Shown here piece by piece: positions 1 through 31,086 of a DNA stretch of 64,000 nucleotides. Below the pieces are notes generated by a model that was given only the letters and a program-made list of their open reading frames with translations, ran no database searches and had not been told where the DNA came from. Made by a program: the position numbers and the translations under genes. The stretch covers positions 2,688,001-2,752,000 of the forward strand of contig OY730476.1 of assembly GCA_963422735.1 (NCBI GenBank), written 5' to 3'. Positions within the stretch are counted from its first letter, which is position 1. Every line of letters starts with the position of its first letter. The DNA comes from Candidatus Latescibacterota bacterium. Lineage in GTDB: Bacteria > Latescibacterota > UBA2968 > UBA8231.

Positions 1-2
1 TC

Positions 3-1919
3 CCCTCCTTCCGCTTTCTCGAAGCCGACTTTCCCCAAATGTTCGACGACGACGGAAATACCGCCTTAGCGGTGAAATCTTCGGGCACGGGGGGAACCGG
101 GGCCTTTGGCCTACTCATCGAATTCGACTTGGGGGCCATCTTTGGCGTCAATCGGTTCAAGTTTTTTCCGCGCAATGCCGATCCGGCCTTTCCGGCCCCG
201 GATTTCCAGTCCCAAGACGACTTTTTGAAGGGCTACGAAATTTTCGTCAATGACGGCCAACCCGAATCGCGCCGCGAGGGCAGTCTGATCTGGGAAACTG
301 TCGCCTTTGAGGGGCAGAACCAAGAAGCGGTGGTGGATGTGCGAATCCCCACCCGCTTCGTGCGATTTTTGCGGCTCAAATCCCTGACGGCCGCGGACTT
401 TGAGATCTCCGAGTTCCAAGTATTTAGCGAGGGCTTTGTGCCGCAGGCCGTGTACATTTCCAACGTATTCGACTTTGGCGACCAAGCGCTTTTGGGCCGT
501 TTGCGCTGGGTTGAAGAGCAGGTGGGCGATCCAACCCGCTCTAGGGTGCAGGTCCGTACCCGCACTGGGGACGATCCCCAGCCGGTCGAGTTTACCCGGA
601 TTGGCAAGCAATCCTCCGGCCGAGTTGAGCAGCGGGGCGATACCGTTTTTGACATCCCCATCGACGCGCCTTGGAAGAGGGCCGAAGGTGTAGAAGACAG
701 CGAACTCAAAAGCCTGATCGCCAATGTCCTCGACAACGAAGAGATGGACGGACGCGAGGCGCTTTTGACCTTTGGCCAGTTGCCTTTTGCACAGCGGTCT
801 CAGATCACCCTCCACGAGGCGGACTACAACAAATTGGGGAGCGACCAAAAATCGGTGATTCGCGAAGACCTCACTAATTGGAGCCCTTGGTCCCCCCCCT
901 ACTCGCCCGAGGGTATTGTCGCCCCAGATCAACTTCAGGTGCAAGGATCGGGGACGCTGATCGCATCGCCTAGCCCGCGGCGCTATTTTCAAGTTATGAT
1001 CGAATTCTTCAACGCCGATGTCGATGCGGCTACTGGCATCGGCGGGGTGGCTTGGGATGTTTTCCGGCCCATCTTCGCCGACTCCCTCATCGCCGAGATC
1101 CTGCCCCGCACCGCCGTTCTAGGCCAAGCCACCCGCTTCACGTATGGCATACTGGTCAAATCCACTCCCCAGAATGCGGGTTTTGACCGCTTTGAAATCA
1201 GCACACCGCTGCGCACCGAGTCGATTGGCCTAGTGGAAATACGCCGGCCCGACGGCACGGCAGAAACTGCGGATTTTTCCGGCTCGTCCCTTGCAGTGCT
1301 CCCGGTCGAGCAGAATGGCTTTAGCGTGGTGGCCGTGCGCGACGACGGCTTTGTCATGGCCTTGCCGCGAATTGAAGGGGATGGGGTGCTTTTGACCTTA
1401 GAGTTTGAAAATACGGTCCTGCGCCTAGGGACTCGCTTTGCCGGCCGGGCACTCAACGCCGACAATGAGGTGCTGGGCCAAGTGGTGTTGGCCGGTAATG
1501 CCGCGGATTTGAGCCGGGAAGGCGTAGATGATCCCGACCGCAAAGCCGTGGGCACCCTCGATCCAGAAAACCTCTTTGTCAACGTGCCAATAACCGACGA
1601 ACTGCTAGTGAATGTGGCGGCCGTCCCCAGCGTTTTTACCCCCAATGGCGATGGGGTCAACGAGCGGGCGGCCATTACCTACGATATCACCAACATAGCC
1701 CACCCGACCCGGGTGCAGCTCAGGATCTACGATTTGAGTGGCCGGCTGATCCGCAACCTCTACGAAGGCTTGGACTTGAGTGGTCGATTTATCCGCTTTT
1801 GGGACGGACGCGACGATGGGGACAACGCGGTACCGCCGGGCCACTATGTCTTTTTTGTTGCTTTGGATGCGGGGACCGGAGAGGAGAAGCGGTTAGGGGT
1901 TGTCGGGGTAGCGTATTGA
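3..1919 (+). CDS. Secreted protein with discoidin-like region and C-terminal FlgD Ig-like / T9SS-CTD-like domain (probably 5'-truncated by the window)
   Basis: Frame is open from position 3 into the 39..1919 ORF. C-terminus VFTPNGDGVNE...IYDLSGRLIRNL...WDGRDD...PPGHY...VVGVAY. Shares many motifs with 8830..10752. Confidence 0.8.
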   Translation, partial: PSFRFLEADFPQMFDDDGNTALAVKSSGTGGTGAFGLLIEFDLGAIFGVNRFKFFPRNADPAFPAPDFQSQDDFLKGYEIFVNDGQPESRREGSLIWETVAFEGQNQEAVVDVRIPTRFVRFLRLKSLTAADFEISEFQVFSEGFVPQAVYISNVFDFGDQALLGRLRWVEEQVGDPTRSRVQVRTRTGDDPQPVEFTRIGKQSSGRVEQRGDTVFDIPIDAPWKRAEGVEDSELKSLIANVLDNEEMDGREALLTFGQLPFAQRSQITLHEADYNKLGSDQKSVIREDLTNWSPWSPPYSPEGIVAPDQLQVQGSGTLIASPSPRRYFQVMIEFFNADVDAATGIGGVAWDVFRPIFADSLIAEILPRTAVLGQATRFTYGILVKSTPQNAGFDRFEISTPLRTESIGLVEIRRPDGTAETADFSGSSLAVLPVEQNGFSVVAVRDDGFVMALPRIEGDGVLLTLEFENTVLRLGTRFAGRALNADNEVLGQVVLAGNAADLSREGVDDPDRKAVGTLDPENLFVNVPITDELLVNVAAVPSVFTPNGDGVNERAAITYDITNIAHPTRVQLRIYDLSGRLIRNLYEGLDLSGRFIRFWDGRDDGDNAVPPGHYVFFVALDAGTGEEKRLGVVGVAY

Positions 1920-1944
1920 TATTGGGCGGGGGAGTTCCCTCGCG

Positions 1945-4764
1945 ATGAATTTTACCATGCAGAATTGGGAGGGTGCGGCATTGAATGTCCGCGGAGCAAA
2001 TTTAACTATTGGGCTGGTACTGTTGGTCGCGTTCCAAGCCGTGCTCCACGCCCAAAACTACGGCACCCGCCTAGGGATCCAGCGCGGCGGCAAAGTTAGT
2101 TTTGAGCCCCGGGGCCCAGGCGTACTCTTTGGATCCCTCGATCCCGCCGTACAGAAGTGGTATGTTCCCCAAGAACTCTACTACGAGTTCAGGTGGCGCC
2201 AATGGGAGTACTCCAACTACGCCCGCGACCAGTACCAGCGCTATATCAACACCAACCTAGAAGGCGACTACTTCTACGACTTTTTCGGCAACTACATCAA
2301 CCGCGGCTGGCTGGTGTACGACTGGCGCCAAGACCAGCCCCAAGAGCTGGGCAGCGGCATCTTCAAGGGCCGCCAATTCGAGCAGTTCTTCAGCTCGGTG
2401 ACCGTAAGCGGCGACTCCAAGGGCCAGTACTCCTACGCCATTACCGTGGGCAACGCGATCCGCACCACCCTCACGCCGATGACCTTTTCCAAGCCGAATT
2501 TCAACGGAGTCCAGATCGACTTCGCCTCGGACAAATACGCCGCCACCGTGCTGGCCTCGCGGATCAATGATCCGGCCGTGGGCGTGACCATCAATCCTAG
2601 ACGGCAATCCAATTCGACCTCCCTGTTCGGTGGCCGGGCCCTCGCTCAGGTGGGTGATTTTGTTACTGTGGGCGGGACCGTGGTCAACGCCCACAACGCC
2701 AATACCGCCTTGGACATGTTCGAAGGCAATCTGCTAGCGGGGAATCTCACCTCGGGCCAGACCAGTACGCCGGTTACTGCCATAGCTATCGTCCTCAGCG
2801 ATGACAGCCCCGAGGACGAGGAGGGCGGCGCGGCTCTTTTCAGCCACGATATACGCATCAAGAGCCGCGATTTCGAGACGGGTTTAGAAACGCTCTCAAC
2901 GTTGGACAAGGTAGTGCGCGAGGGAGCGGAGTGGCCGACCGTATTTGGCGGCTTTCCGCGCACTGGCTTTTTGGCCGCCGACGGCACTGAGCGAATCATC
3001 CTCAATTACGACTTTACGGACCCAGCGTATGTCGGGCCGGACTTAACCTCCATAGTCGAGGTGGAATTCGACTATGTGCTGGCCAACGACTTCAAGGTCG
3101 AAATGTGGTCCAATCTGCAGACTGGCACGCGCCCGGTGCCGCCGCCACCGCTGACCAACCAAGTCATTGAAGAAGCCGAGCCGGTACTCATCGACATAAG
3201 GCGGGCTGCCGGCAATATAAAGGATATATCCAACGCCCAGCGAATTCTTTTCAACTACGGCTTGCCCTCGGCCAATATGGTGGCCGGATTCACCATTGAG
3301 GGCAAGAACGTGTGGGGCTTTGATTTCTACGGCGAATGGAACAACAACCTGCGCTATTTCCAGTACCCTAATGCCGCCCTTTTCAACGCCAACGAAGGGC
3401 ACGAGGTCTCTACGGAGAGCGGTCAGGCGACCATCTTCAACCTGTCCAAAGAGGCCTACCCGTTTTTTGCTTATGGTGAAGCTTACTCGGTGGATGCCGA
3501 CTATTCGACCTCGGCTTTTGTCTCCTTGCCCCAAGGGGATGTTTTCTACGACGATCCCATACGCTCAGTGTACGAATTTGTCGCCGACAACGACGACCAA
3601 GACCGCCAGCCCGACTGGGCCCGGGTAGGCTCGCAGTCGAACGACCGGGAGGTGTTTCCCGGCTGGGACGAAAACCTCGACTTCATTTCGGACTTCAACC
3701 AGAACGACAACCGCTCGGTGCCCAATTCCATTCCCGACTATGAAGAGCCGTTTTTGCGCTATCACGTCGATCGGCCCGAACTCCTCTTTGGCATTGACCT
3801 CAACAACAACGGCTGGATCGACCGTTTTGAGGACGACGAGTTGGCTGACTATCCCTACAAGCCCGACCGGCGCGGGTACAATGTCTTTTTTGGCGTTCAT
3901 CTCTTCCCAGAGGCGCGCTTGCTGGTAGGGCAGCTCGACGAGCGCATGCTATCGGACGATCGGGACAACCGAACTGCGTATGCCATGTTCACCCTCGACA
4001 AGGACTACCCCGATTTGGGGCGGGTGCGGGTCTTCGATATGCTCAAGCGGGTCGCGGACACCGTCCCCGACCCCCGGCGGGCACCGCTGCCCTTCCTTGA
4101 CGCGCCCACGCCGCCGCTGGTATCGGATATGCTGGTCTTTCCCGATACCTATATCAATACCGCGTGGTTGGGGGTGGACTACACCGGCATTTCCAATTTC
4201 GAGATCGTCAACAAACTCAAATACGAGCGTTACAACCAGGTTCAAGACGAATCCCGCGACATCGACGGCCGGATACTCGCTAGTTCGCCCTTCCTCTTGG
4301 GCGTGATCAACAAATTCGAGTACAAGCTGCACCTAGGCCATTTTATTCTACAGCCGAGGCTCAAAAGTGAGTACTTCCGCCAAGACGCCTTTGTGCTGGC
4401 CGAAGAAGACCTAAAACAATGGACTGGGATTGTCTCGCTTTTGGCCCAAGTGCCCCTACTCAACAGCAGCGTAGTTGACTTCGGGGTGGAGTTGGCTCAG
4501 TTCAACGAGCTGGTGCAGCAGGAGGAGGATATGGTCGAGCAGGGGATCGCCGAAGAGACCGGGGATTTGCGCTCTACTGTTTTTGCGGTGCAGCTAACCA
4601 ACAACTCGAACTATTTGGGTTACAAGCTAACGACGCAACTCGGCCTACGCATCGGCCACACTTTCACCGAGGCGGTGCGGGAGGTTGAACCCCGGGTCTT
4701 CGACAAGCGCATCAAAGGTCGGACCGAGACCACTAGCTTTATCACCATCTACGCCGGATTGTAA
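1945..4764 (+). CDS. Large secreted/outer-membrane hypothetical protein (939 aa), paralogue A
   Basis: Long ORF with signal peptide ending VLHA-Q; alternative TTG start at 1981 behind GGGAGGG. Aromatic- and Asp-rich motifs, amphipathic beta-like C-terminus ending FITIYAGL. Collinear similarity to 4764..7676. Confidence 0.85.
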   Translation: MNFTMQNWEGAALNVRGANLTIGLVLLVAFQAVLHAQNYGTRLGIQRGGKVSFEPRGPGVLFGSLDPAVQKWYVPQELYYEFRWRQWEYSNYARDQYQRYINTNLEGDYFYDFFGNYINRGWLVYDWRQDQPQELGSGIFKGRQFEQFFSSVTVSGDSKGQYSYAITVGNAIRTTLTPMTFSKPNFNGVQIDFASDKYAATVLASRINDPAVGVTINPRRQSNSTSLFGGRALAQVGDFVTVGGTVVNAHNANTALDMFEGNLLAGNLTSGQTSTPVTAIAIVLSDDSPEDEEGGAALFSHDIRIKSRDFETGLETLSTLDKVVREGAEWPTVFGGFPRTGFLAADGTERIILNYDFTDPAYVGPDLTSIVEVEFDYVLANDFKVEMWSNLQTGTRPVPPPPLTNQVIEEAEPVLIDIRRAAGNIKDISNAQRILFNYGLPSANMVAGFTIEGKNVWGFDFYGEWNNNLRYFQYPNAALFNANEGHEVSTESGQATIFNLSKEAYPFFAYGEAYSVDADYSTSAFVSLPQGDVFYDDPIRSVYEFVADNDDQDRQPDWARVGSQSNDREVFPGWDENLDFISDFNQNDNRSVPNSIPDYEEPFLRYHVDRPELLFGIDLNNNGWIDRFEDDELADYPYKPDRRGYNVFFGVHLFPEARLLVGQLDERMLSDDRDNRTAYAMFTLDKDYPDLGRVRVFDMLKRVADTVPDPRRAPLPFLDAPTPPLVSDMLVFPDTYINTAWLGVDYTGISNFEIVNKLKYERYNQVQDESRDIDGRILASSPFLLGVINKFEYKLHLGHFILQPRLKSEYFRQDAFVLAEEDLKQWTGIVSLLAQVPLLNSSVVDFGVELAQFNELVQQEEDMVEQGIAEETGDLRSTVFAVQLTNNSNYLGYKLTTQLGLRIGHTFTEAVREVEPRVFDKRIKGRTETTSFITIYAGL

Positions 4765-7676
4765 TGGGGATGAGGGCGCGTTACATCACATTGGCTGCTC
4801 TGGCCGGGCTGAGTCTGTGGGGGGTAGCCGCTGCTCAAATCGACTATGGGGGCCGTCTGGGGGATCGGGTGGGAGATCGCGTCATTTACTACGTGCCCGG
4901 CGTTTCTACTTATATAGAGGCACTGGACCCGACCGTGCAGCGCTGGTACATGCCGGCTCCGCTCTTTGGCGAATTCGGCCGCGATCAGTGGGAGTACACC
5001 AACTACGCCCGCCAAGCCCACAAGCGCTATATCGACCCCTCGTCCGAGGGGGATCTCTTCTACGATCCCTTCGGTCGCCTCATTACGCGAGGTTGGCTGG
5101 TGTACGACTGGCGCCAGACAAAACCACTAATCGCCGAGAGTTCCTCCGTCAGAAAAGGTGCCCAGTACAACAACTGGTTTAGCCGCTTGGTTATATCCGG
5201 GGACACCAAGGGCCAGTATCGCTATTCGATTATGGTCGGAGACGAGATATGGACTACTCTAACGCCGATGACCTTCCGCAAGGCGGGGTTCAACGGGGTA
5301 ATAGCCGACTTTGCCGCAGACCGCTTTCGCGCCACCGGGCTTTTCTCGCGGATTTCGTTCCCGCTCCTTTCTGGGGGCACTGCACGCTTCCAGTACGCGA
5401 CCAACCTCACAGCGGGCCGGGTAGAAGCCGATTTGACCGATTCTTTTACGTTGGGGATGAACTTCGTCAACAGCCACAACAACACCGGCAGCAACGAGAG
5501 CTTCCAAGGGAATGTGTTCAAGGGCGCCCTGACGGCAGGGCAACTGGCCCAGCGGGTTGACCTGCTCTTGGTGAGGCTCTCGGACGACTCGCCAGAAGAC
5601 GGCGAGGGTGGTGCTGTCTTGGTTGGCGAGGAGATCGAGATCCGCACCACCCTAAGCCGTCAGGAGATGGTTCGGGACCAGATGGTCCACGTGGAGCGGG
5701 ATACCGTCATCCTCAGCAGCAGTATCGGCTTTAGACCGGCTATTGAAGGGGGGAGACGAGACCGAGGGTTTCTAACGGCCAATGGTGCGGACCAGATCAT
5801 TTTGCAATATCCCTTAACCCCCCGGGAGACAACCGGGGAAGAGGGAACCTTGCGGGCGCTCTTCCAGCAACACCTAGATCTCACCCTATCTGAAGCCGAA
5901 GCCGCGATTAGCTCCATTCGAGACGTGCGCTTCCGCCTCGTGCTAGCTAACGACTATCGAGTTGAGGTCAGTTCCAATAGACAGACGGACGAATTTGGTG
6001 TGCCTCAATTTTTACCCGCGGCGCGGGCCGATGGCAATATCAAGAACCAGTTGAACCAGCGCGAGGTCGTCTTCGACTATGGACTGCCTACGGCCAACCA
6101 GATCGTCGGCTTGACGGCCGAGGTCCGGGATTTTCACGGCTTCGATTTTTACGGGGAGATAAACCTCAATACCCAGTACCGAAAATACCCCAGCATAGGC
6201 CGCGATTCCCACCGTGCGATCAACGGCATCGCGGGGGACCGCCATGAAGTAGGCTGGTTGGTCAATCTGGCCTTCCGGGAGGGCCCTTGGAAGCTTTATG
6301 GCGAAGGGTTCGGCATGGAAGACGGGTACCGCACCAGCGTCCTGACGGTAAATCGAGACGGGGTGTCGGACTACGCCCCCGAGGCCGTCAACCTGCACTA
6401 CGAGTTTGTAGATGACAACGACGACAACGACCGGCAGCCCGACTGGCTGCGAGTGGGCGAGGGCAGCTTTGTCCCCACCGAGCGCCGCAGCGAGATTGAG
6501 GTTCGCGGCGTGGCCGATCCGGCGGTTTTTCCCGGTTATGACGAGAATCGCGACTTTATATCGGATTTCAACCAGAATAGCACCGTCGATCGGGTAAATT
6601 TTTTTCCCGACTACGACGAGCCTTTTTTGCGCTATGCCGCGGATCGCCCAGAATTTCTCTTCGGCATTGATCTCAACAACAATGGATGGGTGGAACGCTT
6701 TGAGAACGATCAAGAGCCGGATTATCCCTACAAGCGAGACCACTGGGGCTACAATCTCTTCGGCGGGATCGAAGTGGCACCGGGTATCCAGCTACGGGTG
6801 GGTCAGTTGCGGCAAATCCGCTTGGCGAGCGGCCGCCGCAACCTGACTAGCTATGGAATGTTCACCTTGAAACAGAGTGGGCCGAGGTGGGGCCGTCTGC
6901 GGGTTTTCGACATGATTAAGAAGGCCGAGGACGAGATCGCCGACCACTTGGTCCAATGGCTCATCCCTAAGAGCACATTCGGCGCAGCGGCCGAGTCGGC
7001 CGGCAGCAATGTTCCGGTATTAGACCCCTTGGCCGCGGAGGACACTTGGATCAACACTTTTTACGCCGACTGGGAGTACGCCAGCCCGCGTTTGTGGCGG
7101 ACCCTACATCGCTTCAAATGGGAGACTTGGCGGCAGCGCGACAATGAGGTCGAATTTTTGCGCGATACACCGGATGAGGCGGTGGCCTTTGATCCTCTAG
7201 GCCCTGAGGGGCGCAACGGACGACAGACCTCGGGCTTTGTCGGGCTGATCAATAAGATAGAATATGTCTTTTACTGGCGGTCGCTGAGTTTCAGGCCCAA
7301 ACTCAAGAGCGAATTCCTGCGCGAGGTGCCCTTTAGCCGAGCATTCGACAAGCGCCGCTCTTGGGACGGCCTCTTTTTCTTTGTCGGTAGCGTTCCAGTG
7401 CTCAAGACTACCGAGTTCGAGTTCGGCTTGGAGCAGCGCTCTTTCTTCGACCTTGAAGGAGGAGAGGACGAACTGGCGGCGGGGCTTTTCACCGGGGATT
7501 TTCGCGGTTCGGTTTTGGCGTTGCAACTTACCAATATCAGCCAATATCTAGGCTATGAGCTAACCACTCAGGTGGGCATCCGCCTCGATCGCCGCTCGTT
7601 GGAAGTAATTGACCGGAGCCGAGAGATCGAGACCTCGGGCTTGAGCTTTCTGTCGATCATCGCCGGCTTAAAGTGA
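4764..7676 (+). CDS. Large secreted/outer-membrane hypothetical protein (970 aa), paralogue B
   Basis: TAATG overlap with the upstream gene. Signal peptide ending AAA-Q. Shares QWEYxNYAR, RGWLVYDWRQ, LSDDSPEDxEGG, DFISDFNQN and FGIDLNNNGW with paralogue A. Confidence 0.85.
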   Translation: MGMRARYITLAALAGLSLWGVAAAQIDYGGRLGDRVGDRVIYYVPGVSTYIEALDPTVQRWYMPAPLFGEFGRDQWEYTNYARQAHKRYIDPSSEGDLFYDPFGRLITRGWLVYDWRQTKPLIAESSSVRKGAQYNNWFSRLVISGDTKGQYRYSIMVGDEIWTTLTPMTFRKAGFNGVIADFAADRFRATGLFSRISFPLLSGGTARFQYATNLTAGRVEADLTDSFTLGMNFVNSHNNTGSNESFQGNVFKGALTAGQLAQRVDLLLVRLSDDSPEDGEGGAVLVGEEIEIRTTLSRQEMVRDQMVHVERDTVILSSSIGFRPAIEGGRRDRGFLTANGADQIILQYPLTPRETTGEEGTLRALFQQHLDLTLSEAEAAISSIRDVRFRLVLANDYRVEVSSNRQTDEFGVPQFLPAARADGNIKNQLNQREVVFDYGLPTANQIVGLTAEVRDFHGFDFYGEINLNTQYRKYPSIGRDSHRAINGIAGDRHEVGWLVNLAFREGPWKLYGEGFGMEDGYRTSVLTVNRDGVSDYAPEAVNLHYEFVDDNDDNDRQPDWLRVGEGSFVPTERRSEIEVRGVADPAVFPGYDENRDFISDFNQNSTVDRVNFFPDYDEPFLRYAADRPEFLFGIDLNNNGWVERFENDQEPDYPYKRDHWGYNLFGGIEVAPGIQLRVGQLRQIRLASGRRNLTSYGMFTLKQSGPRWGRLRVFDMIKKAEDEIADHLVQWLIPKSTFGAAAESAGSNVPVLDPLAAEDTWINTFYADWEYASPRLWRTLHRFKWETWRQRDNEVEFLRDTPDEAVAFDPLGPEGRNGRQTSGFVGLINKIEYVFYWRSLSFRPKLKSEFLREVPFSRAFDKRRSWDGLFFFVGSVPVLKTTEFEFGLEQRSFFDLEGGEDELAAGLFTGDFRGSVLALQLTNISQYLGYELTTQVGIRLDRRSLEVIDRSREIETSGLSFLSIIAGLK

Positions 7677-7683
7677 TTTTTAC

Positions 7684-7712
7684 TTGACCGTATAAGTTGT
7701 TTTTGTTATAAC
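7684..7712 (+). promoter_or_regulatory. Sigma70-type promoter for the 7803 gene
   Basis: TTGACC (7684-7689), 17 bp spacer, TATAAC (7707-7712) with extended TG; AGGAGG RBS at 7790-7795. Confidence 0.7.
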
Positions 7713-7802
7713 AGAGCGTTAGAAACGCCTTTGCTAATTTCGACCGTCGCATTACCGTACCTAACCTTCAAAACCCCACACCTCTAAAAAGGAGGGTTCG
7801 CT

Positions 7803-8723
7803 GTGAAGAAAGTTTTATCTGCTTTATTTATTCCTGTGTTTTTACTCGGCCTGAGCACTGAGGTCCAAGCCCACGATCCGCCCGATTTTATCGGTGCGGT
7901 GTGGCAATGGCCCGAGACTCATCTTCCGGTCTTAGATGCCGATCTGAGCGAATGGGATATCATTCCCGAGGAATTTTGGATCACCGAGCAGAGCGTCGTA
8001 CAGAGTACGGCCCGGCCGTGGATCTACACCGGCGATCTAGACGTCTCCTCGATTTCCTTCCGCTGGATCCCCACTTGGAACGAGGAAACCAACCGCATCT
8101 ACTGGGCCTACGAGCGCTTTGATGACAAGTACCAGTTGGGCAACGAGTCAGTCGAAACGACTGTGGACGCCGATCACTCGGGCGGCTCCTTCTGGGATCT
8201 GGAAGGCCAGACCGAGGAAGAGATCGCACGCCAGCGCGGTCGCCATGCCCAAGTCAACCACTATTGGTTCGACAATGGCCAAGCCCGTGAAGGACAGTGG
8301 AACTGGTTTTGGATGACCCAAGCCGACTGGTACGACACGCCGCCGTACTCCGACCATGCGTATTGGTTTAGCGGCACAGCTCCCAATTCCTTTGAGGAGA
8401 TGCGCCAACGGGCTGAATGGTGGAGCGTCTATTGGGACGACTTCAACTGGGAAGACCCCCAAGGAAGCGTCCTCCACGACTTCCAGCAGGACGAGATCAT
8501 CGGCCTTGCAGGGCATGTCTTCGATACCGATGCCGAGTTATCCGACGATTGTAACTGCCATTCGCGCTGGGCCATCAGTCCCAACGTCGAATCCTTCGGC
8601 GACGCCGATTTCTTGGCTGACTGGGTGCTGCTGGGCGTTGACGAGTCCGCCTTTGAAGGTGTCGCGCCTACAGCCGTTGAAGACAACACTTGGGGCCAGA
8701 TCAAGGCTTCGTTCGGCAAATAA
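7803..8723 (+). CDS. Secreted Trp/Asp-rich protein (possibly CBM9/DOMON-like) with C-terminal TAVE-TWGxIK tail
   Basis: GTG start behind AGGAGG; signal peptide ending VQA-H; LPVLDADLSEW resembles the PxIDGxLxEW start of CBM9-like domains; ends PTAVEDNTWGQIKASFGK. Confidence 0.85.
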   Translation: MKKVLSALFIPVFLLGLSTEVQAHDPPDFIGAVWQWPETHLPVLDADLSEWDIIPEEFWITEQSVVQSTARPWIYTGDLDVSSISFRWIPTWNEETNRIYWAYERFDDKYQLGNESVETTVDADHSGGSFWDLEGQTEEEIARQRGRHAQVNHYWFDNGQAREGQWNWFWMTQADWYDTPPYSDHAYWFSGTAPNSFEEMRQRAEWWSVYWDDFNWEDPQGSVLHDFQQDEIIGLAGHVFDTDAELSDDCNCHSRWAISPNVESFGDADFLADWVLLGVDESAFEGVAPTAVEDNTWGQIKASFGK

Positions 8724-8754
8724 GCGGTTCTTGCGCCTTCATAAGCGTTTCAGA

Positions 8755-8796
8755 AAGAAGGGGGGGAATTCTATTCCTCCCCTTCTTTTATTTTCT
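8755..8796 (+). terminator. Rho-independent terminator
   Basis: AAGAAGGGGGGGAAT-TCT-ATTCCTCCCCTTCTT hairpin followed by T-rich sequence after the 8723 stop. Confidence 0.65.
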
Positions 8797-8829: not shown

Positions 8830-10752
8830 ATGAGAGGGAATTTGCTGCGACTTTTGTCGGCTGCTCTAGTAGGAAGCTTCTGTTATGGGCTAGCTGAGGT
8901 CGAGGCGCTCACCGTGTATCGCATTGGCGGCGAGGAGTTGCCGCCGCCGGAAGTGGGAGGGAACTTTGAATTTGTCCAGTTATCTTGGGCGGATGTGGAC
9001 GAAAAACGGCTCGGTAGGATAGACCTCTTGGAGGTCGCGACCCATTCTATCGAGCCTCAACGCCTAGATCCCTCCGTCAATCTGACGCCTCTGATTCGGG
9101 AGCGAGGCGGCGGCATACGCTCGAATAATTCCTACGGTTGGCAATCGGAAGCCCTCTTGGACAACTTGATGGACGGCGATCTGACCACTGCTTACTTGGG
9201 AAGCGGTCGTAGCCAGGCGGCCGACTGCCCGCCGTGCAAGAAGGGCATCTGGTTTGAGTTGAACGGACTGTTTCCCATACGACGCATCAAAATTTCTACT
9301 ACGGAGCGCTTTGCCTACCAGCGCTTCATTGAGGTGTTCGAGATAGGCACTAACGATGGCGATTCGCGCAAAAAGGGAACCCGAGAAGGGCAATACCATT
9401 GGCGCGGGGCTTTTCTCGATTATGATATCGCGTTCAAAGTCGCAAATAATTTGGAACCCTTCCTCGATTTAGAAATGCCAGACCGACCCATCGCCGAGAT
9501 TCTTTTTAAGGCACCAGTCGGCAATTGGGAAATCGCCGAATTTGAGGTCTTCGGGGATGGCTTTGCTTCGCAGGCCAGCTATGTATCCAATGTCATTGAT
9601 TTGGGTATGACTTCTAGTCTAGGCGAGTTGACTTGGTCGGGCAGCCGAGATCAGGGAGCAACGGTCAATCTGAGTATGCGCAGCGGCGACGACACGGATC
9701 CCAATTTCTACTGGCGCTTCACGTTCAGAGGCGATGAGCGCTCCCGCTTTGCAACCACTGGCGAACCGCTCACCCTAGACCGCTATAAAAGACTGGAGGA
9801 AGGCGAGAAAGCCGGGATCAGTCCGGACAACGAAAGTTGGGAGTTCTGGACGCCGCCGCTCGACTTCGATAGGGGGCATTCCGAGTTAGTGGGTTTGCGG
9901 CCTCGGCGCTACTTGCAGTTCAAGGCGGACTTCTTCTCGGAGCGAGCCTTTGCGGCCGGACGCATGGAGCACTTGCAGTTTAGCGTCTCCCAACCGCCGG
10001 TGGCTAGCCAAGTGCTGGCCGAGATCGTGCCGCACCAAGTCGAGGTGGGTGAGATCGTCCAATTCATCTACAAAATCCTGCCGAACTTAGAGCAGAATGA
10101 TCTCGGTTTCGACAGCATTGAGATCGACACCCCCATAGAAGTCACGAGCATTGACGCAGTGTACATCGGCGGCGAAGAACAGAATTTTACCATCGCGGAA
10201 AAGGACGCGAAGAGCTTTGTGGTACAATTGCCGCGGATTGATCTCAACCGCACGGGCGAGTTGGTCGAGGTCGAATTTCAGGCCGAGGTATTTCAGGTGG
10301 GCACGGTGTTTTCGGGCCGGGTCTTCGACAGCCAGCGCCCCCACGAAGTGCGCCAGCGCATCACTGAGGGGAACGCCGATGATCTGGCCGAGAGCAATAC
10401 CCTGAGCGTGGGGTTAGGTACGGTGGCCAACCCGGCGGTCAAGGCATTGTGGCTTTCGCCGCGGCTTTTTACCCCCAACGAGGATGGCGTCAACGATGTG
10501 CTACAGATTGAATACGATCTGGTGAACCTCAGCGGTGCTGTGCCCGTGACGATTGATCTCTACGATCTGGCGGGGGTGAAGCGATGCGAGGTGGCCCATA
10601 GTACAGCAGCTAGTGGCCGTTTCTCGGCCACATGGGAAGGCGTGGACGATGTGGGCAACCTGCTACCCCCCGGACTCTATCTCTTGCGTCTCGAAGTGGA
10701 CTCGGACAAGGCCAAGGATGTCGAAGTTGCGATCGTCCGGCTGATTTATTAA
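8830..10752 (+). CDS. Secreted protein with discoidin-like region and C-terminal FlgD Ig-like / T9SS-CTD-like domain
   Basis: AGGAGG RBS, signal peptide; C-terminus LFTPNEDGVND...YDLAG...WEG...PPGLY...IVRLIY; paralogue of 3..1919. Confidence 0.85.
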   Translation: MRGNLLRLLSAALVGSFCYGLAEVEALTVYRIGGEELPPPEVGGNFEFVQLSWADVDEKRLGRIDLLEVATHSIEPQRLDPSVNLTPLIRERGGGIRSNNSYGWQSEALLDNLMDGDLTTAYLGSGRSQAADCPPCKKGIWFELNGLFPIRRIKISTTERFAYQRFIEVFEIGTNDGDSRKKGTREGQYHWRGAFLDYDIAFKVANNLEPFLDLEMPDRPIAEILFKAPVGNWEIAEFEVFGDGFASQASYVSNVIDLGMTSSLGELTWSGSRDQGATVNLSMRSGDDTDPNFYWRFTFRGDERSRFATTGEPLTLDRYKRLEEGEKAGISPDNESWEFWTPPLDFDRGHSELVGLRPRRYLQFKADFFSERAFAAGRMEHLQFSVSQPPVASQVLAEIVPHQVEVGEIVQFIYKILPNLEQNDLGFDSIEIDTPIEVTSIDAVYIGGEEQNFTIAEKDAKSFVVQLPRIDLNRTGELVEVEFQAEVFQVGTVFSGRVFDSQRPHEVRQRITEGNADDLAESNTLSVGLGTVANPAVKALWLSPRLFTPNEDGVNDVLQIEYDLVNLSGAVPVTIDLYDLAGVKRCEVAHSTAASGRFSATWEGVDDVGNLLPPGLYLLRLEVDSDKAKDVEVAIVRLIY

Positions 10753-10777: not shown

Positions 10778-12454
10778 ATGAAAAATGGAATACTGCGCTC
10801 TTATCTGGGCGTTTGTATCCTAGGGCTCTCGTTCCCCTGTGCAGCCCAAGACGATGTAGTGCTTGCCCAGATAGAAGACCACCCCATCGCCGTCAGCGAG
10901 TTCAGAGCCTTTGCCGCGAACATTCCCAAAGCCTATCAGATGGGTAAGACCGGTATCGAAGCCAACCGGATTCTGCTCAACGGACTGATCGACAAAAAAC
11001 TATTGCTCGCCGAAGCGGAACGAGCTGGCATTGGCGACGAATTGGAGTTTAAGCGCAAGGTTGAGCAGTTCGCCCAAGACCAGACCGTAAGGCTCTACAA
11101 AAGTAGCGAGATTGATCAGCAGGTTTCCATTGCCAAAGAGGAGTTGATGCAGCACTACCGGGATTCGCACCGGGATCGAGCGTTGCGCTATGCGGGTATT
11201 TTGGTAGCGACCCGGGACGAGGCCCTTGAACTGCTCGACGAACTGGAGGCTGGTGCTGATTTCCGCCAACTGGCCAGAGAGCACTCGCTCTACGAGGCGA
11301 CGCGGGATCAAGGCGGGGATGTGGAAAAGTACTATGCGATTGACGATACGGCTCCACCGCTCCGGAGTATCTTTTCCATGCAGGTCGGCGAGATCTCCGA
11401 GCCACTGCCGTGGGGCGGCGACCCGCAGCGCTATGTGATCGTCAAGGTTTTAGACGACGCTCCGATCGCCTTTCGGGAGGTGGCCCAGTTCGTCAGGGAA
11501 GAGGTCTTCGCCCAAAAGCGCCTACAGCGTGCCCTAGTTCTGCGCGATTCGCTCAGCGGTCAGTACGCGCCGCAGATTCACTACGACAAGATAGACCATG
11601 TACTGATGCGTCTAGCGCTGTCGCCTGAAGAACGGGTAGCGTTGCCCGAGGAGGGCGAAGAGGTATTGTGCCACTACAAAGGCGGAGTGCTCACCATTGA
11701 CGATCTCGTCCTGAGCGCACCGGAGAAAGAAGAGGGTTATTCTCGCGATTACGAGCGAGACTGGATCGTCGATTATCTACAGGATGCGGCCATCCCCAAT
11801 CGGATATTTCTGGAAGAGGCCCGCGGCAAGGGACTGGACAAACATCAGGTGATCCTCGCGGCGGTGGCTAATAAGCGCAGCGATATGCTGGTGAGCGCGT
11901 TGAGAAAGCGAGAGGTTGAGGAGCGGCTGCCGCCGATCACCGATGCAGAGGCGCGCGCCTTTTACGATCAAAATCCCGAGAAGTTTCAAGGCTTTGAGAA
12001 CATTGTCGCGACCGAGATTCTGGTGGCCTTTAAGGAGCAGGCCCACAGTCTAAAAGAGGAGTTGGTGGGGGGTGCCGACGCGGTGCAATTGGCTAGGGAC
12101 TATACGATTCGCAAAGAGCGGGCGCACCACGAGGGGCGGTTGGTCTTGAGTCCGGTAGGGCTGTACCAAGATATCTACAAAGTAGCCAAAAATCTGCAGG
12201 TGGGGGATGTGGGGGGACCGGTAAAGGTGAGAGGGGGGTATTCGGTTTTCAAGGTGGAGGAGAAACAGCCCCCCCCCAAGAAGCCCTACCACATTTTTTC
12301 GCAGCGGCGGGCACGAGCTTATGTAAAAATTGCACGTTCGCAAAAGGCGTACGTGCAGTATATGCGCGGATTGCACAAGAAGTACTCGGTCGAGATTTTC
12401 GAGGATAACTTGATAAAAGTGCAGGAAGAGGAGGAAGCCGTGAAGGGGGGATGA
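10778..12454 (+). CDS. Periplasmic peptidyl-prolyl isomerase (SurA/PrsA-like, two parvulin domains)
   Basis: Signal peptide; GADFRQLAREHS...GGDV...VGEISEP and GADAVQLARDYT...VGDVGGPVKVRGGYSVFKV rotamase motifs. Confidence 0.85.
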   Translation: MKNGILRSYLGVCILGLSFPCAAQDDVVLAQIEDHPIAVSEFRAFAANIPKAYQMGKTGIEANRILLNGLIDKKLLLAEAERAGIGDELEFKRKVEQFAQDQTVRLYKSSEIDQQVSIAKEELMQHYRDSHRDRALRYAGILVATRDEALELLDELEAGADFRQLAREHSLYEATRDQGGDVEKYYAIDDTAPPLRSIFSMQVGEISEPLPWGGDPQRYVIVKVLDDAPIAFREVAQFVREEVFAQKRLQRALVLRDSLSGQYAPQIHYDKIDHVLMRLALSPEERVALPEEGEEVLCHYKGGVLTIDDLVLSAPEKEEGYSRDYERDWIVDYLQDAAIPNRIFLEEARGKGLDKHQVILAAVANKRSDMLVSALRKREVEERLPPITDAEARAFYDQNPEKFQGFENIVATEILVAFKEQAHSLKEELVGGADAVQLARDYTIRKERAHHEGRLVLSPVGLYQDIYKVAKNLQVGDVGGPVKVRGGYSVFKVEEKQPPPKKPYHIFSQRRARAYVKIARSQKAYVQYMRGLHKKYSVEIFEDNLIKVQEEEEAVKGG

Positions 12455-15265: not shown

Positions 15266-16903
15266 ATGCACGCGCTAGTAAGCGGGGTCCTCATCCTCCT
15301 GTGTACGGCTCTTCTATTAGCCCAACCACTGCCTACTCAGTTCACCGATCAAGCCGCCGCACTCGGCATCACTGCACGGAATGTCTCGGGCAGCACCCAA
15401 GAATACATCGTTGAAACCGCTGTGGGAGGCACGGCCTTTTTCGACTACGACAGCGATGGCGATGTTGATCTATACGTCGCCAACGGCTCCCGCTTTGAAG
15501 GATTTCCTCTAGGCCAAGAGCCGACTAACCACCTCTACCGCAACCACGAGGATCGCTTTTTCGACATCACTACCGCCGCTGGGGTGGGCGATACGAGTTG
15601 GTCCATGGGTTGTGCCGCTGCGGACTACGACAATGATGGCGATCTGGACCTGTATGTGACCAACTTCGGCCGCAATACCTTCTACCAGAATCAGGGCGAT
15701 GGCACGTTTGAAGATGTTACTGAAAAAGCTGGCGTCGGGGACCAAAGATGGGGCGTCGGCTGCGCTTTCGGCGATGCTGATCTAGACGGCTACGTCGATC
15801 TATACGTGGCCAATTATATCGACTTTTCGCGGGACTATACTTCTACTGTCCCCTGCGTGTGGAAGACCGTCGATATTTTTTGCGGTCCGCGCGGCTTGCT
15901 TCCCGCCGCCGATGTATTCTACCACAACAGCGGCGACGGCACCTTGGCCGACCGCAGCGAGGAAGCCGGCATTGTCGGCGCAAAGTACTATGGGTACGGA
16001 GTCGTCTTCGGCGATTTCGACCGCGATGGCTGGCCCGATATTTTCGTTGCCAACGACTCGGCACCGAACAATTTGTACCAAAACCAAGGCGATGGCACCT
16101 TTGTCGATGAGGGCCTCAGCGCGGGCGTGGCTTATAGCGGCGACGGCACCGAACAAGGATGTATGGGTGCGGCGGTCGGCGATTACGACAACGATGGCTA
16201 CTTCGATATCTTTGTCACCAACTTTGAAGGCGAGTACAATACTCTCTACAAAAATCAGCGCGGTGGATTTTTCCTCGACGTATCCTTCGTATCTCACATT
16301 GCGGCGCGAGGCATTCCCGAGGTGGGGTGGGGCGCAGGGTTTTTCGACTTTGACAACGATGGCGACCAAGACCTTTTCGCGGCCAATGGCCACACCTATC
16401 CCCAAGCTGACTTGCCCCATACCAATAGCAGCTATGCCGAGCCTAATTTTCTCTACCAAAACTTAGGCGACGGCACCTTTGCCGAGGTTTCTGCACGCGC
16501 CGGCTCGGGCTTTACCATAGTCGAGGTGAGCCGAGGTGCGAGCTTTGCCGACTACGACCGCGACGGCGATATCGACCTCTTTGTCTTAAATCTCAACAGC
16601 ACTCCCAACCTCCTACGCAACGATGGCGGCAACGAAGGCAATTACTTGCAGATCGCCACCGTAGGCACCCGCAGCAACCGAGACGGAATCGGCACCCGAA
16701 TCGAGATAAGTGCCCAAGGCAAGCGCCAGACCGCCGAGGTGCGCAGTGGCACTGGCTTCCTCTCCCACAGCGATCTCAAGGTACACTTTGGTTTGGGTAC
16801 CGCCTCCATGGTTGAAAGCGTCGTCCTCTACTGGCCCAGTGGCACGGTCCAGATTCTGCGCGATGTGGCGGCCAATCAGGTACTAACCGTGCGCGAACCT
16901 TAA
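15266..16903 (+). CDS. CRTAC1-family protein (FG-GAP/VCBS repeats + ASPIC/UnbV domain)
   Basis: Repeated DYDNDGDxDLYVxN motifs; C-terminal SNRDGIG...SGTGFLSH...HFGLG...WPSG. Confidence 0.9.
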   Translation: MHALVSGVLILLCTALLLAQPLPTQFTDQAAALGITARNVSGSTQEYIVETAVGGTAFFDYDSDGDVDLYVANGSRFEGFPLGQEPTNHLYRNHEDRFFDITTAAGVGDTSWSMGCAAADYDNDGDLDLYVTNFGRNTFYQNQGDGTFEDVTEKAGVGDQRWGVGCAFGDADLDGYVDLYVANYIDFSRDYTSTVPCVWKTVDIFCGPRGLLPAADVFYHNSGDGTLADRSEEAGIVGAKYYGYGVVFGDFDRDGWPDIFVANDSAPNNLYQNQGDGTFVDEGLSAGVAYSGDGTEQGCMGAAVGDYDNDGYFDIFVTNFEGEYNTLYKNQRGGFFLDVSFVSHIAARGIPEVGWGAGFFDFDNDGDQDLFAANGHTYPQADLPHTNSSYAEPNFLYQNLGDGTFAEVSARAGSGFTIVEVSRGASFADYDRDGDIDLFVLNLNSTPNLLRNDGGNEGNYLQIATVGTRSNRDGIGTRIEISAQGKRQTAEVRSGTGFLSHSDLKVHFGLGTASMVESVVLYWPSGTVQILRDVAANQVLTVREP

Positions 16904-16907
16904 AAGC

Positions 16908-18836
16908 CTACCACCGCGTCACTACTGCGTTCCACCCTGCAATCAGATCTACCGCCATCCACAAACCCGCACTGCTAGCTTGACCCAACACCATGCCAAG
17001 AAAAAAGGGCCGCAGTCGGCGAAAGAGTTTGACGCCGCCGTACTTCAGTACGATCCATTTCGCCAGCCAACCCAGCGCCATACTCGACCAAGCAAAAAAC
17101 ATCACATAGGTCCCCCCCACCGGTAGGCCGATCGGGTGGATGGGCCACCACAAGAAGCGGTGGCGCAGGTACAACAACAAAAACATCAGCCCGGCTCCCA
17201 AGCCGGTAAACGCGCCCCTTGGGCCCCAGAAATTCCACTCGGCCACCGGATTGAGCTGATTTGCCGCCATATCGTTAAATGTCCAGCGGCCCATAATGCT
17301 GTAAAACCAGTAGTGTAGATTGACGCCGCCGTAGGTATAGGCAATGGAAAGTACCGTCCAAGCCGAGGCGACCAAACTCACGGCGATGGCGATGAGCAAG
17401 GCCCAAAAGAGCGGCGGCCGGCGCGTCCTGACAACGTCGGCCAGCCGGGTGCTGTTGGAAGCCGCTGCCATAACGGTCGTGCGGATGTCCCCGGCCCAGC
17501 CATTGGCAAACCCGAGCACCATCAAACCTCGCGGCCCAATGGGTGCCGTGCCCAGCGCATTGATCGCAAAGGCTGTTGGCGTCATCTGCGCCCGGCCATA
17601 CCCCATGCCTCCTTCGGCGACAATCCGCGTCAAACCGACGAATACCACAAAGGCGATAACGAGCAACAAAAGCGCCGCCCCCACGGGCAATCCCGCGCTT
17701 TTCAACCATATAACCGCATAGAGGAAGGCCCCGATCAGGAGCCACACTGCCTTGCGGTAGGAGAGCATCTGCCCGGCGTCCTTCTTTTGCCATGCCCCAA
17801 AGACAACCTCTTTTAGATGTCGGCGGGCGGTCCACAAGCTGGCCGCCACGAGGGCAATCAATGCCCCCATGGCCTGCTGGGCAGTGGCGATTGATCCTTC
17901 GGTGTGCATCAGCCGGATTTCTGCAATGCTGAACCCGAGGGTGTTGAAAAGGCCCAACTGGAAGAAATTGAGCAAGTAGAAAAACCACAGACTAAAGGAG
18001 ACCTCTAAACTCAGGAAGTACGTCAGGCCAAGGACGATAAACCACAAGTTGAACAAGACGCCCCGCATGTCGTGGAAGACGGCCAATTGGGTTGATAACT
18101 GGATGGGGGGCACAAAGGGATAGTACTTGTGCAGGGCATTGATTCCCAATAGGACGAAGGGAACGGCAAACCCCAACCACATCAGCGGTTCCTTCAGAAA
18201 GGGATTGATCGCCGAGGGCCTGTCGTCCTCGTGGATCATGTACAGCGGCAACTGGACGAGAGGAAAGATCAAGCGCTCGTTGCGGGCCCATTGTTCGTGG
18301 AGCAGAGCCGACAGGGCGATCATCATCAAATAGAGTGCGCCCAAAAAAGAAGCCCACGCCAACAGGGGCACCAACCATGCTCCCCAAGGGATGGCTACCT
18401 CTTTGGGCAACCCTTCGTAGAAGTACTTGACCGCCATCGGGTCTTGAGGTGCCAGCCACGGCTGGATATAGGGGTGGAGCAGTTCGGCCCAGTTGTTTTC
18501 CGGCGTGGCATAGTAATAAACCCCGGCCAAAAAGGGGACCAATTGAGCCGTGACTCCGGTGGAGGGAATAGCCGAGGCCGCGACCATCATGGCGTAGATC
18601 ACCACCAATTCACGGGCCGATAAGCTCCATTTGCGCCCGATCCATTTGAGTGGAATGTTGACCAACAGCAGGAGAAAGAGGAGAAAAATCGCGCTCAGGG
18701 CGATGAAATCTCCGGTCCAATCGAGAGTCCCCATCACCAAGAGGCCATAGGGAAAAACCGTGTTGATCACCGCGGCCATCAAAGCGCCGACGAGCAAGGC
18801 CCGATACGGCATCCATCCTTTGTCGCTGGCGGTCAT
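16908..18836 (-). CDS. DUF6785/DUF6784-like integral membrane protein (putative permease)
   Basis: Highly hydrophobic; YYYATPENNW, WxxNERLIFPLVQLP, RIVAEGG, WWPIHPIG, KYGG...RPFFLG motifs. Confidence 0.75.
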   Translation of the reverse strand: MTASDKGWMPYRALLVGALMAAVINTVFPYGLLVMGTLDWTGDFIALSAIFLLFLLLLVNIPLKWIGRKWSLSARELVVIYAMMVAASAIPSTGVTAQLVPFLAGVYYYATPENNWAELLHPYIQPWLAPQDPMAVKYFYEGLPKEVAIPWGAWLVPLLAWASFLGALYLMMIALSALLHEQWARNERLIFPLVQLPLYMIHEDDRPSAINPFLKEPLMWLGFAVPFVLLGINALHKYYPFVPPIQLSTQLAVFHDMRGVLFNLWFIVLGLTYFLSLEVSFSLWFFYLLNFFQLGLFNTLGFSIAEIRLMHTEGSIATAQQAMGALIALVAASLWTARRHLKEVVFGAWQKKDAGQMLSYRKAVWLLIGAFLYAVIWLKSAGLPVGAALLLLVIAFVVFVGLTRIVAEGGMGYGRAQMTPTAFAINALGTAPIGPRGLMVLGFANGWAGDIRTTVMAAASNSTRLADVVRTRRPPLFWALLIAIAVSLVASAWTVLSIAYTYGGVNLHYWFYSIMGRWTFNDMAANQLNPVAEWNFWGPRGAFTGLGAGLMFLLLYLRHRFLWWPIHPIGLPVGGTYVMFFAWSSMALGWLAKWIVLKYGGVKLFRRLRPFFLGMVLGQASSAGLWMAVDLIAGWNAVVTRW

Positions 18837-23455: not shown

Positions 23456-23617
23456 TTTTCGACGTATTGGCGTTTATGAGAGTGATTTTGTGTTAAGATG
23501 GGCGTTAAACAAGTAGCATGTACCCCTTATGTCAAGAGAATGCGTCTTGCCGCCCCGCCCTTGTGTTGGATATTATGGACTCTCTCAAAAAGCCAAAATT
23601 CTGAGCTTTCGCAAACC

Positions 23618-26185: not shown

Positions 26186-26194
26186 GAGTTGCAG

Positions 26195-31025: not shown

Positions 31026-31086
31026 AGCATTATCAAAGAACACCACGAAGAAATACAAACGCAAACTAAAGAGTTGGGGCTAAGCC

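Follow-up and report, generated by a model that had tools for sequence, protein, structure and literature searches.

Very large outer-membrane beta-barrels encoded in co-inherited pairs in Latescibacterota, and their possible part in surface capture and uptake

In the Bacteroidota, two described systems stand closest to the locus discussed here. SusC/SusD (RagAB) loci are present in dozens of paralogous copies per genome and pair a big barrel with surface carbohydrate-binding proteins, often with transporter and catabolic genes close by. PorP/SprF proteins, which are about 300 aa long, serve the type B cargo of the type IX secretion pathway. Type B substrate genes have been described as adjoining those of their PorP/SprF partners (PMC9143113, PMC12618676), and binding of the cargo tail to the barrel has been reported from co-purification or cross-linking (PMC9143113). 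Here, we describe two genes, A and B, from a 64,000-nucleotide stretch of the genome of a Candidatus Latescibacterota bacterium (GCA_963422735.1, contig OY730476.1, positions 2,688,001 to 2,752,000 of the forward strand; hereafter the window, with positions counted from its first letter). Gene A (1945..4764, + strand, 939 aa) and gene B (4764..7676, + strand, 970 aa) encode very large outer-membrane beta-barrels of a family not described before, in which they belong to the upstream and the downstream clade, respectively. The module of which the pair in the window is part occurs 24 times in the genome. Our overall reading, to which we give about an even chance, is that these barrels are the outer-membrane core of a surface capture-and-uptake module.

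On one hand, the organization of the locus recalls PorP/SprF and type B cargo. Here too the barrel gene adjoins genes for surface proteins with CHU_C/type-B-like tails (the gene just upstream of A matches CHU_C at 4.8e-9), there are many cognate pairs per genome, and SprA is present. However, we found no sequence relation to PorP/SprF: PF11751 and TIGR03519 were unmatched in Pfam and NCBIfam scans of the full 939 and 970 aa. The A/B family is also three times larger (870-1068 aa, ~28 strands), has a conserved acidic insert, and is bound to one family of cargo bodies rather than to the tail. Its module further differs in including a SurA-like chaperone, a CBM9-like protein and a lipoprotein, and GldM_1st was not found in a search of the genome. 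The comparison with SusC/SusD is similar. The TonB-dependent receptor models Plug (PF07715) and TonB_dep_Rec (PF00593) matched neither A nor B, with whole proteins at E<=1 or N-terminal regions at E<=10, whereas the window's own TonB-dependent receptor (28923-31064), our positive control, matched both. In addition, the binding proteins here are tail-bearing secreted proteins and not lipoproteins (a lipobox-like site was seen in only 3 of 67), and neither a SusD-like protein nor a glycoside hydrolase was found among the scanned genes. Given these missing matches to PF11751, Plug and the TonB receptor, and a control receptor that passes, membership of A and B in either system is excluded; size, strand number and the insert also set them apart. 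We read the module as resembling both systems in what it may do, and not in descent.

An undescribed barrel family inherited in pairs

As whole proteins, A and B matched no Pfam or NCBIfam model at E<=1, and this includes the LptD/OstA, POTRA, Bac_surface_Ag, Usher and TPS models; SLH and other wall-binding domains were likewise unmatched in Pfam. The acidic insert and the N-terminal region alone had no Pfam match even at E<=10, and a profile of the family gave only chance matches to PDB sequences (E 0.18 or higher). The Pfam, NCBIfam and PDB-sequence searches were therefore empty of any confident full-length match to a characterised family, and a full-text literature search, with subscription journals outside its coverage, found no description of the family or the module. 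The family itself is large, with 907 matches among 7997 candidates scored in one database and 674 matches at E<=0.001 among the 50%-identity cluster representatives of a second, which places the likeness of A and B far beyond chance. Named relatives among the 907 are all called "hypothetical protein" and are labelled as Latescibacterota or Gemmatimonadota metagenome-assembled genomes (MAGs), with Latescibacterota accounting for most relatives overall; a few distant clusters of the family carry Ignavibacteria or Bacteroidota MAG labels. ESM Atlas look-alikes are unnamed clusters from the same phyla, the nearest cluster that bears a family being DUF6029 at 0.89, a lead only.

The two open reading frames (ORFs) have the lengths given by an earlier sequence-only reading of the window and meet, as it described, in a TAATG overlap (4762..4766, + strand), in which the stop codon of A (TAA, 4762-4764) and the start codon of B (ATG, 4764-4766) have one base in common. 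BLASTP aligns them over their full length (610 bits, 395 of 1008 columns identical, 39%), and every motif block that had been listed as common, from YGxRLG to the terminal AGL, can be found in this alignment. Both proteins begin with Sec-type signal peptides, read by eye: residues 1-36 in A (1945..2052, + strand; cleavage between VLHA and QNYG, with Met5 as an alternative start) and residues 1-24 in B (4764..4835, + strand; cleavage between VAAA and QIDYG), where the structural model gives a helix at 3-22. Relatives in the family begin to align with A at about residue 20-40. The conserved N-terminal region of A (2053..2544, + strand) contains YGxRLG, LDPxVxKWYxPQEL, YxNYAR and TTLTPMTF, its first part being of low confidence in the model. 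A following SDDSPEDxEGGA loop (2797..2832, + strand) is nearly invariant: among 91 aligned relatives, which reach down to ~25% identity, D286 is kept in 90, S288 in 87, P289 in 85, D291 in 85 and G295 in 88. At the other end, the claim that the usual aromatic beta-signal is absent was overstated. The C-termini of the 34 paralogues in this genome mostly read, by eye, approximately [FL][IV][TS][VI][YF]AG[LI] plus a few residues (up to ~5), which puts an aromatic residue three or four positions before the end. The window's TonB-dependent receptor ends in GIGGWVGD, also without a terminal aromatic, so that this trait is not peculiar to the barrel family.

An AlphaFold model of B, built on a deep alignment of 91 diverse relatives, has a mean pLDDT of 81.4 and a pTM of 0.81, with the first ~70 mature residues at low confidence; a model of A from 32 close relatives reached a pLDDT of 64.5. 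By DSSP, the B model has ~28 long strands between residues 142 and 968, counted from the listed strands, and a first non-strand insert (residues 318-384) made of a small beta unit and two helices. The top fold matches listed (about 50 per search, from Foldseek and from a Foldseek-independent search) are all outer-membrane or organelle beta-barrels, among them MtrB (E 3.8e-7), Deinococcus SlpA (E 4.5e-8 and 4.2e-7, Z 12.0), LptD, SprA, the ushers FimD/PapC (2vqi, Z 10.4), TamA/BamA and porins. The solved barrels MtrB and LptD have 26 strands, Deinococcus SlpA 30, SprA 36 and the FimD/PapC ushers 24, which makes them similar in size class to A and B; each of these barrels surrounds a partner molecule or lets one through. 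However, the similarity is distant (TM 0.12-0.24, Z 9-13, rmsd ~5-13 Å, sequence identity 5-10%) and no family model is common to them and A/B; judged from the models, A and B resemble these proteins in fold class and not in family. The large beta-barrel proposed in the sequence-only reading is thus supported by the model of B and by listed fold matches that are barrels only, and the structure prediction and fold search give no sign of a fold lacking a barrel. Together with the Sec signals, the long antiparallel strands and the conserved C-terminal motif, these matches give A and B the general features of outer-membrane barrels.

Between two of the strands lies an acidic Asp/Asn-rich insert of ~125-140 residues, which is the best-conserved part of the family. 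In A it spans residues ~517-641 (3493..3867, + strand), with conservation per 20-residue block peaking at residues 601-640; in B it spans residues 519-659 (6318..6740, + strand), has almost no regular secondary structure, and has block pLDDT values of 65-91 from residue 581. The residues kept in 84-91 of the 91 relatives are, in A numbering, D548, N549, D550, D551, D553, D557, P572, G573, D575, D579, D583, N587, N594, P597, D598, E601, P602, F603, D618, N620, N621, N622, D626, E629, D631, D635 and Y638. The insert had been proposed to carry calcium-binding loops. A 12-residue loop of the EF-hand type is found in A, DLNNNGWIDRFE (residues 618-629, with the pattern match at 618; 3796..3831, + strand), and in B, DLNNNGWVERFE (residues 636-647; 6669..6704, + strand). 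EF-hand loops have ligand residues at positions 1, 3, 5, 9 and 12 and a Gly at position 6. As in EF-hand, dockerin and DxDxDG loops, the loop of A and B, D-x-N-x-N-(G)-x-[IV]-[DE]-x-x-E, keeps the ligand positions: Asp, Asn and Glu at 1, 3, 5, 9 and 12 (D618, N620, N622, D626 and E629 of A) are kept in 87-91 of the 91 relatives, as is D631 of A. Unlike those loops, it has no flanking helices, the insert matched no Pfam EF-hand, dockerin, TSP3 or other calcium-binding model, and the Gly at position 6 is present in only 51 of 91 relatives. A strict pattern, D.[DN].[DN]G.[ILV][DE]..[DE], is met by 12 of the 34 paralogues in the genome, A and B among them, and by only 6 of its 4081 other genes. 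The ligand positions hardly vary, even if only 51 of 91 relatives have the Gly, and it is thus plausible and reasonable to suppose that the insert binds calcium.

The genome, a single 4.95-Mb contig, encodes 34 full-length barrel paralogues (870-1068 aa) in 24 loci, namely 4 A-B pairs, 2 triples, 2 loci with two non-adjacent copies and 16 singles. In a FastTree phylogeny of 68 proteins (these 34 and 34 from 18 related loci), the upstream partners form one clade (support 99) and the downstream partners its sister clade (support 100), with mirrored subclades; the sole exception is an A-A-B locus, L034, where a downstream gene groups with the A clade. In the triples, too, each of the three positions corresponds to a clade of its own. 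The order of the genes is also kept across related loci, of which 78 were fetched from the best 80 of 649 confirmed: 74 open with an A-type gene, and in 70 of these a B-type gene follows downstream on the same strand, at a distance of <=10 nt in 47 pairs, of 11-200 nt in 11, and with one or more inserted genes in 12. As genes were called as longest ORFs, their starts and some of the gap lengths are approximations. Three of the 74 stop at a contig edge before any B. The question raised by the sequence-only reading, whether the two clades are always adjacent, is therefore answered in part: B follows A almost throughout, but not always directly, and one locus, L057, has an A without a B. In L034 and L035, both from related MAGs, A is duplicated in the order A, inserted gene, A, B.

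The mirrored clades and the A-then-B order indicate that the pair arose once and was then inherited and re-duplicated as a unit; A and B are anciently duplicated, co-inherited subunits. This co-inheritance is the strongest argument that they work together, and judging from the sequences they most likely form a heteromer where barrel genes sit together. Production of A and B in a 1:1 ratio, which had also been proposed, is suggested by the one-base overlap and by the spacing of <=10 nt in 47 of the 70 related pairs. Contigs 90-95% identical to the window were found in three metatranscriptome runs from three studies, with the run labels sponge, marine and unspecified metagenome. These contigs cover the locus and span the A/B junction (X15, 4389-6191; X16, 2814-6403; X19, 4188-6577) as well as the junction between A and the gene upstream of it (X19, 1-4181), although such contigs prove neither transcription nor a single transcript.

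The copy number and the pairing also bear on one rival explanation of the barrels, as structural or general-diffusion proteins, either large porins or SlpA-like envelope tethers with functionally unrelated neighbours. Deinococcus SlpA is indeed among the best fold matches. However, 34 diverged copies in a conserved multi-gene module are unlike a housekeeping porin, the pair and triple sets duplicate as units, and a tether of this kind is at odds with the missing SLH or other wall-binding domain; we consider this explanation highly improbable.

Surface proteins and other partners of the barrels

Specific partners of the barrels are lectin-like surface proteins that we call c0. They are 600-1000 aa long, with a Sec signal, an F5/8-type-C/CBM32-like head and a CHU_C/FlgD_ig tail. 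The head matches Pfam F5_F8_type_C models (PF00754/PF22633) in 11 of 36 members (best 4.5e-8), and the family profile matches CBM32/discoidin structures at 8.6e-6 to 1e-4 (2j1a 8.6e-6, 4zz5 1.4e-5). The tail matches CHU_C in 35 of 36 members and FlgD_ig in 32 of 36, and TIGR04131 weakly (1.8e-5; 24.8 bits, below the 35-bit cut-off). The c0 proteins of the four pair loci fall into three orthogroups, with exactly one member of each per locus: gamma, encoded just upstream of A (729-784 aa), beta (831-907 aa) and alpha (640-681 aa). In the window, c0-gamma (3..1919, + strand; 784 aa in the genome, with its 5' end before the window) has a type-IX-like tail that matches CHU_C with 36.7 bits (cut-off 27) and FlgD_ig at 2.3e-5 (residues 529-616), and c0-alpha (8830..10752, + strand, 640 aa) has a CHU_C/FlgD_ig tail; c0-beta of this locus lies ~6 kb before the window. 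A complex prediction of mature A (37-939) with the tail of the upstream c0 (531-626) scored 0.00 in both runs, which counts neither way.

Altogether, 130 genes of the genome encode a type-IX-like tail at the C-terminus. A tail-bearing gene lies immediately upstream, on the same strand, of 18 of the 26 barrel genes that have no barrel gene before them. Within the c0 body family, 62 of 82 genes lie within 6 genes of a barrel gene, and only 2 of the ~48 other tail-bearing proteins do; the barrels thus accompany the c0 body family and are not tied to the tail in itself.

This arrangement is the ground of the main rival explanation, in which the barrels would be anchors or shuttles only, taking c0 from SprA and holding it on the surface for adhesin or lectin display, with nothing passing through. 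It accounts for the CHU_C matches of 35 of 36 c0 tails and their weak TIGR04131 match, for the tail-bearing gene directly upstream of 18 of 26 first barrel genes, and for the presence of SprA in a genome that has no PorP_SprF match, where the role may be vacant. A PorP_SprF match was missing from all 14 control genomes as well, so that this negative speaks neither way. The gene order, too, is the one reported for type B substrates and PorP/SprF partners (PMC9143113, PMC12618676). What speaks against a mere anchor is that the barrels follow the c0 body, with only 2 of ~48 other tail-bearing proteins near a barrel gene. In addition, 28 strands and an insert of ~125-140 residues exceed what an anchor needs, PorP/SprF being ~300 aa, and the transporters, permease-like proteins and ExbBD genes of the loci are left unexplained. 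On balance, we see it as a minority possibility that deserves to be taken seriously.

The distribution of these genes across the phylum helps to separate the barrels from the secretion machinery. We searched 121 genomes, and as related genomes are not independent samples, no statistics are claimed on the phyletic pattern. A barrel match was found in 72, including all 40 other searched genomes of the window's own family, and none in 44 genomes of three other families. The c0 body was matched in 54 of the 121, and all 54 also have a barrel match. SprA_N was present in 113 of the 121, including 41 of 42 genomes from two families without barrels; the genome studied here has one SprA gene, a 2140-aa open frame. 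Taken together, these distributions make the module a clade-specific addition to a phylum-wide SprA.

Tail and translocon, with SprA_N widespread even in barrel-less families, are therefore a system of their own, and this counts against another explanation, that the barrels are dedicated export pores, similar to ushers or two-partner secretion, which would export c0 with the SurA-like chaperone and independently of SprA. The gene order, with several subunit-like genes followed by a barrel and then a periplasmic chaperone, would suit such a pore, as would the similar length of the ushers FimD and PapC among the fold matches (2vqi, Z 10.4). However, these matches are generic (TM 0.12-0.24), no Usher, POTRA or TPS model was matched at E<=1, and the c0 proteins already have the tail type recognised by type IX secretion in a genome that has SprA. 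We find this explanation quite improbable.

Several other gene families accompany the barrels. As a background, 10.2% of all genes have a barrel gene at a distance of up to 8 genes. Directly downstream of B, a core member of the module (c3; 7803..8723, + strand) encodes a secreted, Trp-rich, CBM9-like protein of 306 aa with a signal peptide; 22 of its 27 copies in the genome are within 8 genes of a barrel gene, and its paralogues match CBM9_1 (best 1.7e-9). As a soluble CBM9-like protein, it was rejected as a candidate PorP/SprF-like barrel. In only 15 of the 22 copies near barrel genes does the mature protein, as predicted, begin with His (for example HDPP after VQA); with this and no conserved His column, a copper "histidine-brace" was rejected as a family trait. 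The c3 gene is directly followed by a terminator-like hairpin (8753..8789, + strand) with a 17-bp stem and then a T-run. The 126-nt spacer between B and c3 (7677-7802) is variable: one RNA-library contig swaps 86 nt for 48 other letters, and a second has many small deletions. In three RNA libraries, contigs bearing c3 have a word depth of ~300, compared to 10-20 for A/B, but such depth cannot rank genes and was not used as evidence. A promoter scan, with 8 sites against 8.0 expected, was uninformative.

Downstream of c0-alpha, c4 (10778..12454, + strand) encodes a SurA-like periplasmic chaperone with two parvulin PPIase domains (Rotamase_2 1.4e-19, Rotamase 3.3e-17). The genome encodes 31 such SurA-like double-parvulin proteins, an unusually high number for a periplasmic chaperone, and 20 of them are encoded within 8 genes of a barrel gene. 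A further member, c6, is a lipoprotein (lipobox-like site in 9 of 11 copies), with 11 of 12 copies within 8 genes of a barrel gene; it was rejected as a TonB, having no Pfam match at all and hence no TonB_C. Two accessory members are less tightly linked, an FG-GAP/ASPIC-UnbV protein (c7; 15266..16903, + strand; 17 of 42 copies near a barrel gene) and a polytopic DUF6785+DUF6784 protein (c5; 16908..18836, - strand; 15 of 37 copies), a possible inner-membrane permease whose 12 listed hydrophobic segments overlap in part and amount to ~10 or more spans. In a cluster of Atlas look-alikes of c5, 11% of members carry the OPT family, a lead only, and c5 may represent an uncharacterised permease family. 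TPR proteins (29 of 72) and DUF4159 proteins (5 of 13) are looser members near barrel genes. Further along the window lie an 843-aa ORF (18843-21374, - strand) with a weak MFS-like N-terminal match (21.0 bits, cut-off 33.4) and a spermine/spermidine synthase domain, an 895-aa ORF (23498-26185, + strand) with pentapeptide repeats, FG-GAP repeats and an ASPIC/UnbV domain, and, directly after the latter, a 661-aa all-TPR protein (26189-28174).

Elsewhere in the genome, a divergent subfamily of barrels consists of the triples and of the copies at 368622, 1258641 and 1265544. Three consecutive divergent genes, T1, T2 and T3, are found at each of 2324519-2339439 and 2439311-2450614, both outside the window. 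After them come genes for a ~1100-aa TPR protein, a small lipoprotein, a DUF5683-like protein and a DUF4159 protein that has a Pro/Lys-rich linker and a TonB-like membrane anchor. The DUF4159 proteins beside this subfamily have a TonB-like build, with a membrane helix and then a Pro/Lys/Arg-rich linker, and an ExbB-ExbD-ExbD set lies beside the barrel at 1258641 and also near 2312634.

A possible capture-and-uptake module

Our preferred reading, surface capture and uptake, arranges these components as follows. The c0-alpha, -beta and -gamma proteins would be exported by the SprA translocon and then attach to one or more barrels, while the locus-specific SurA-like chaperone would carry the huge barrels across the periplasm. 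The secreted CBM9-like protein and the small lipoprotein would complete the device. With A and B working as a heteromer, the assembly would bind a glycan or similar ligand at the surface, and the ligand would pass the barrel to reach inner-membrane permeases, the insert, presumably held by calcium, gating or lining the channel. In effect, this would be the job of a polysaccharide-utilisation locus done with no TonB-type plug.

The hints of uptake come from the surroundings of the barrels. A scan of 94 flank genes in 20 of the 24 loci found ABC (Opp-type and sugar-type), MFS and SSF transporters, as well as catabolic enzymes (MR/MLE enolase, aldolase, dehydrogenases, amidohydrolase and S15 peptidase). 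In addition, c5 is enriched near barrel genes, and ExbB/ExbD and the TonB-like DUF4159 proteins lie near the divergent subfamily.

Several observations weigh against this reading. None of the 94 flank genes scanned in the 20 of 24 loci is a glycoside hydrolase, which weakens the analogy with polysaccharide-utilisation loci, and the flank transporters and enzymes vary between loci and may be mere neighbours. The association with c0 is incomplete: 20 of the 82 c0-family genes have no barrel gene within 6 genes, and 18 of the 72 barrel genomes have no c0 match to the single c0 query, all 18 being genomes with weak barrel matches (E 1.7e-73 or weaker). In L057, no B-type gene is present within 5,994 nt of the A-type gene. 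With respect to the insert, only 12 of the 34 paralogues and 43 of the 91 relatives carry the strict EF-hand pattern, and strand parity on the membrane side of the insert is inconsistent, as it implies a 25-residue periplasmic turn. Finally, the evidence is computational throughout and the organism is uncultured.

A bolder version would set these barrels beside porins and TonB-dependent transporters as a third type of outer-membrane importer. This version would combine a ~28-strand barrel, closure by the barrel's own calcium-held acidic insert, loading by three docked lectins secreted by the type IX route, opening in the divergent subfamily by ExbB-ExbD motors through TonB-like arms with DUF4159 at their ends, and obligate hetero-oligomeric pairs and triples. 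We hold this full combination to be unlikely.

At about 34 genes of ~2.8 kb each, ~2% of the 4.95-Mb genome is devoted to an unnamed barrel family without a domain model or a solved relative, and counting the partner genes raises this share several-fold. The sample labels of the RNA runs place relatives in sponge and marine samples, and to our knowledge no member of the group has been cultured. The conserved A/B pairs and the T1-T3 triples are a natural test case for hetero-oligomeric barrels. If capture and uptake is the true function, the module would explain how Latescibacterota and their relatives feed, and would be a new solution to the passage of large molecules across the outer membrane.

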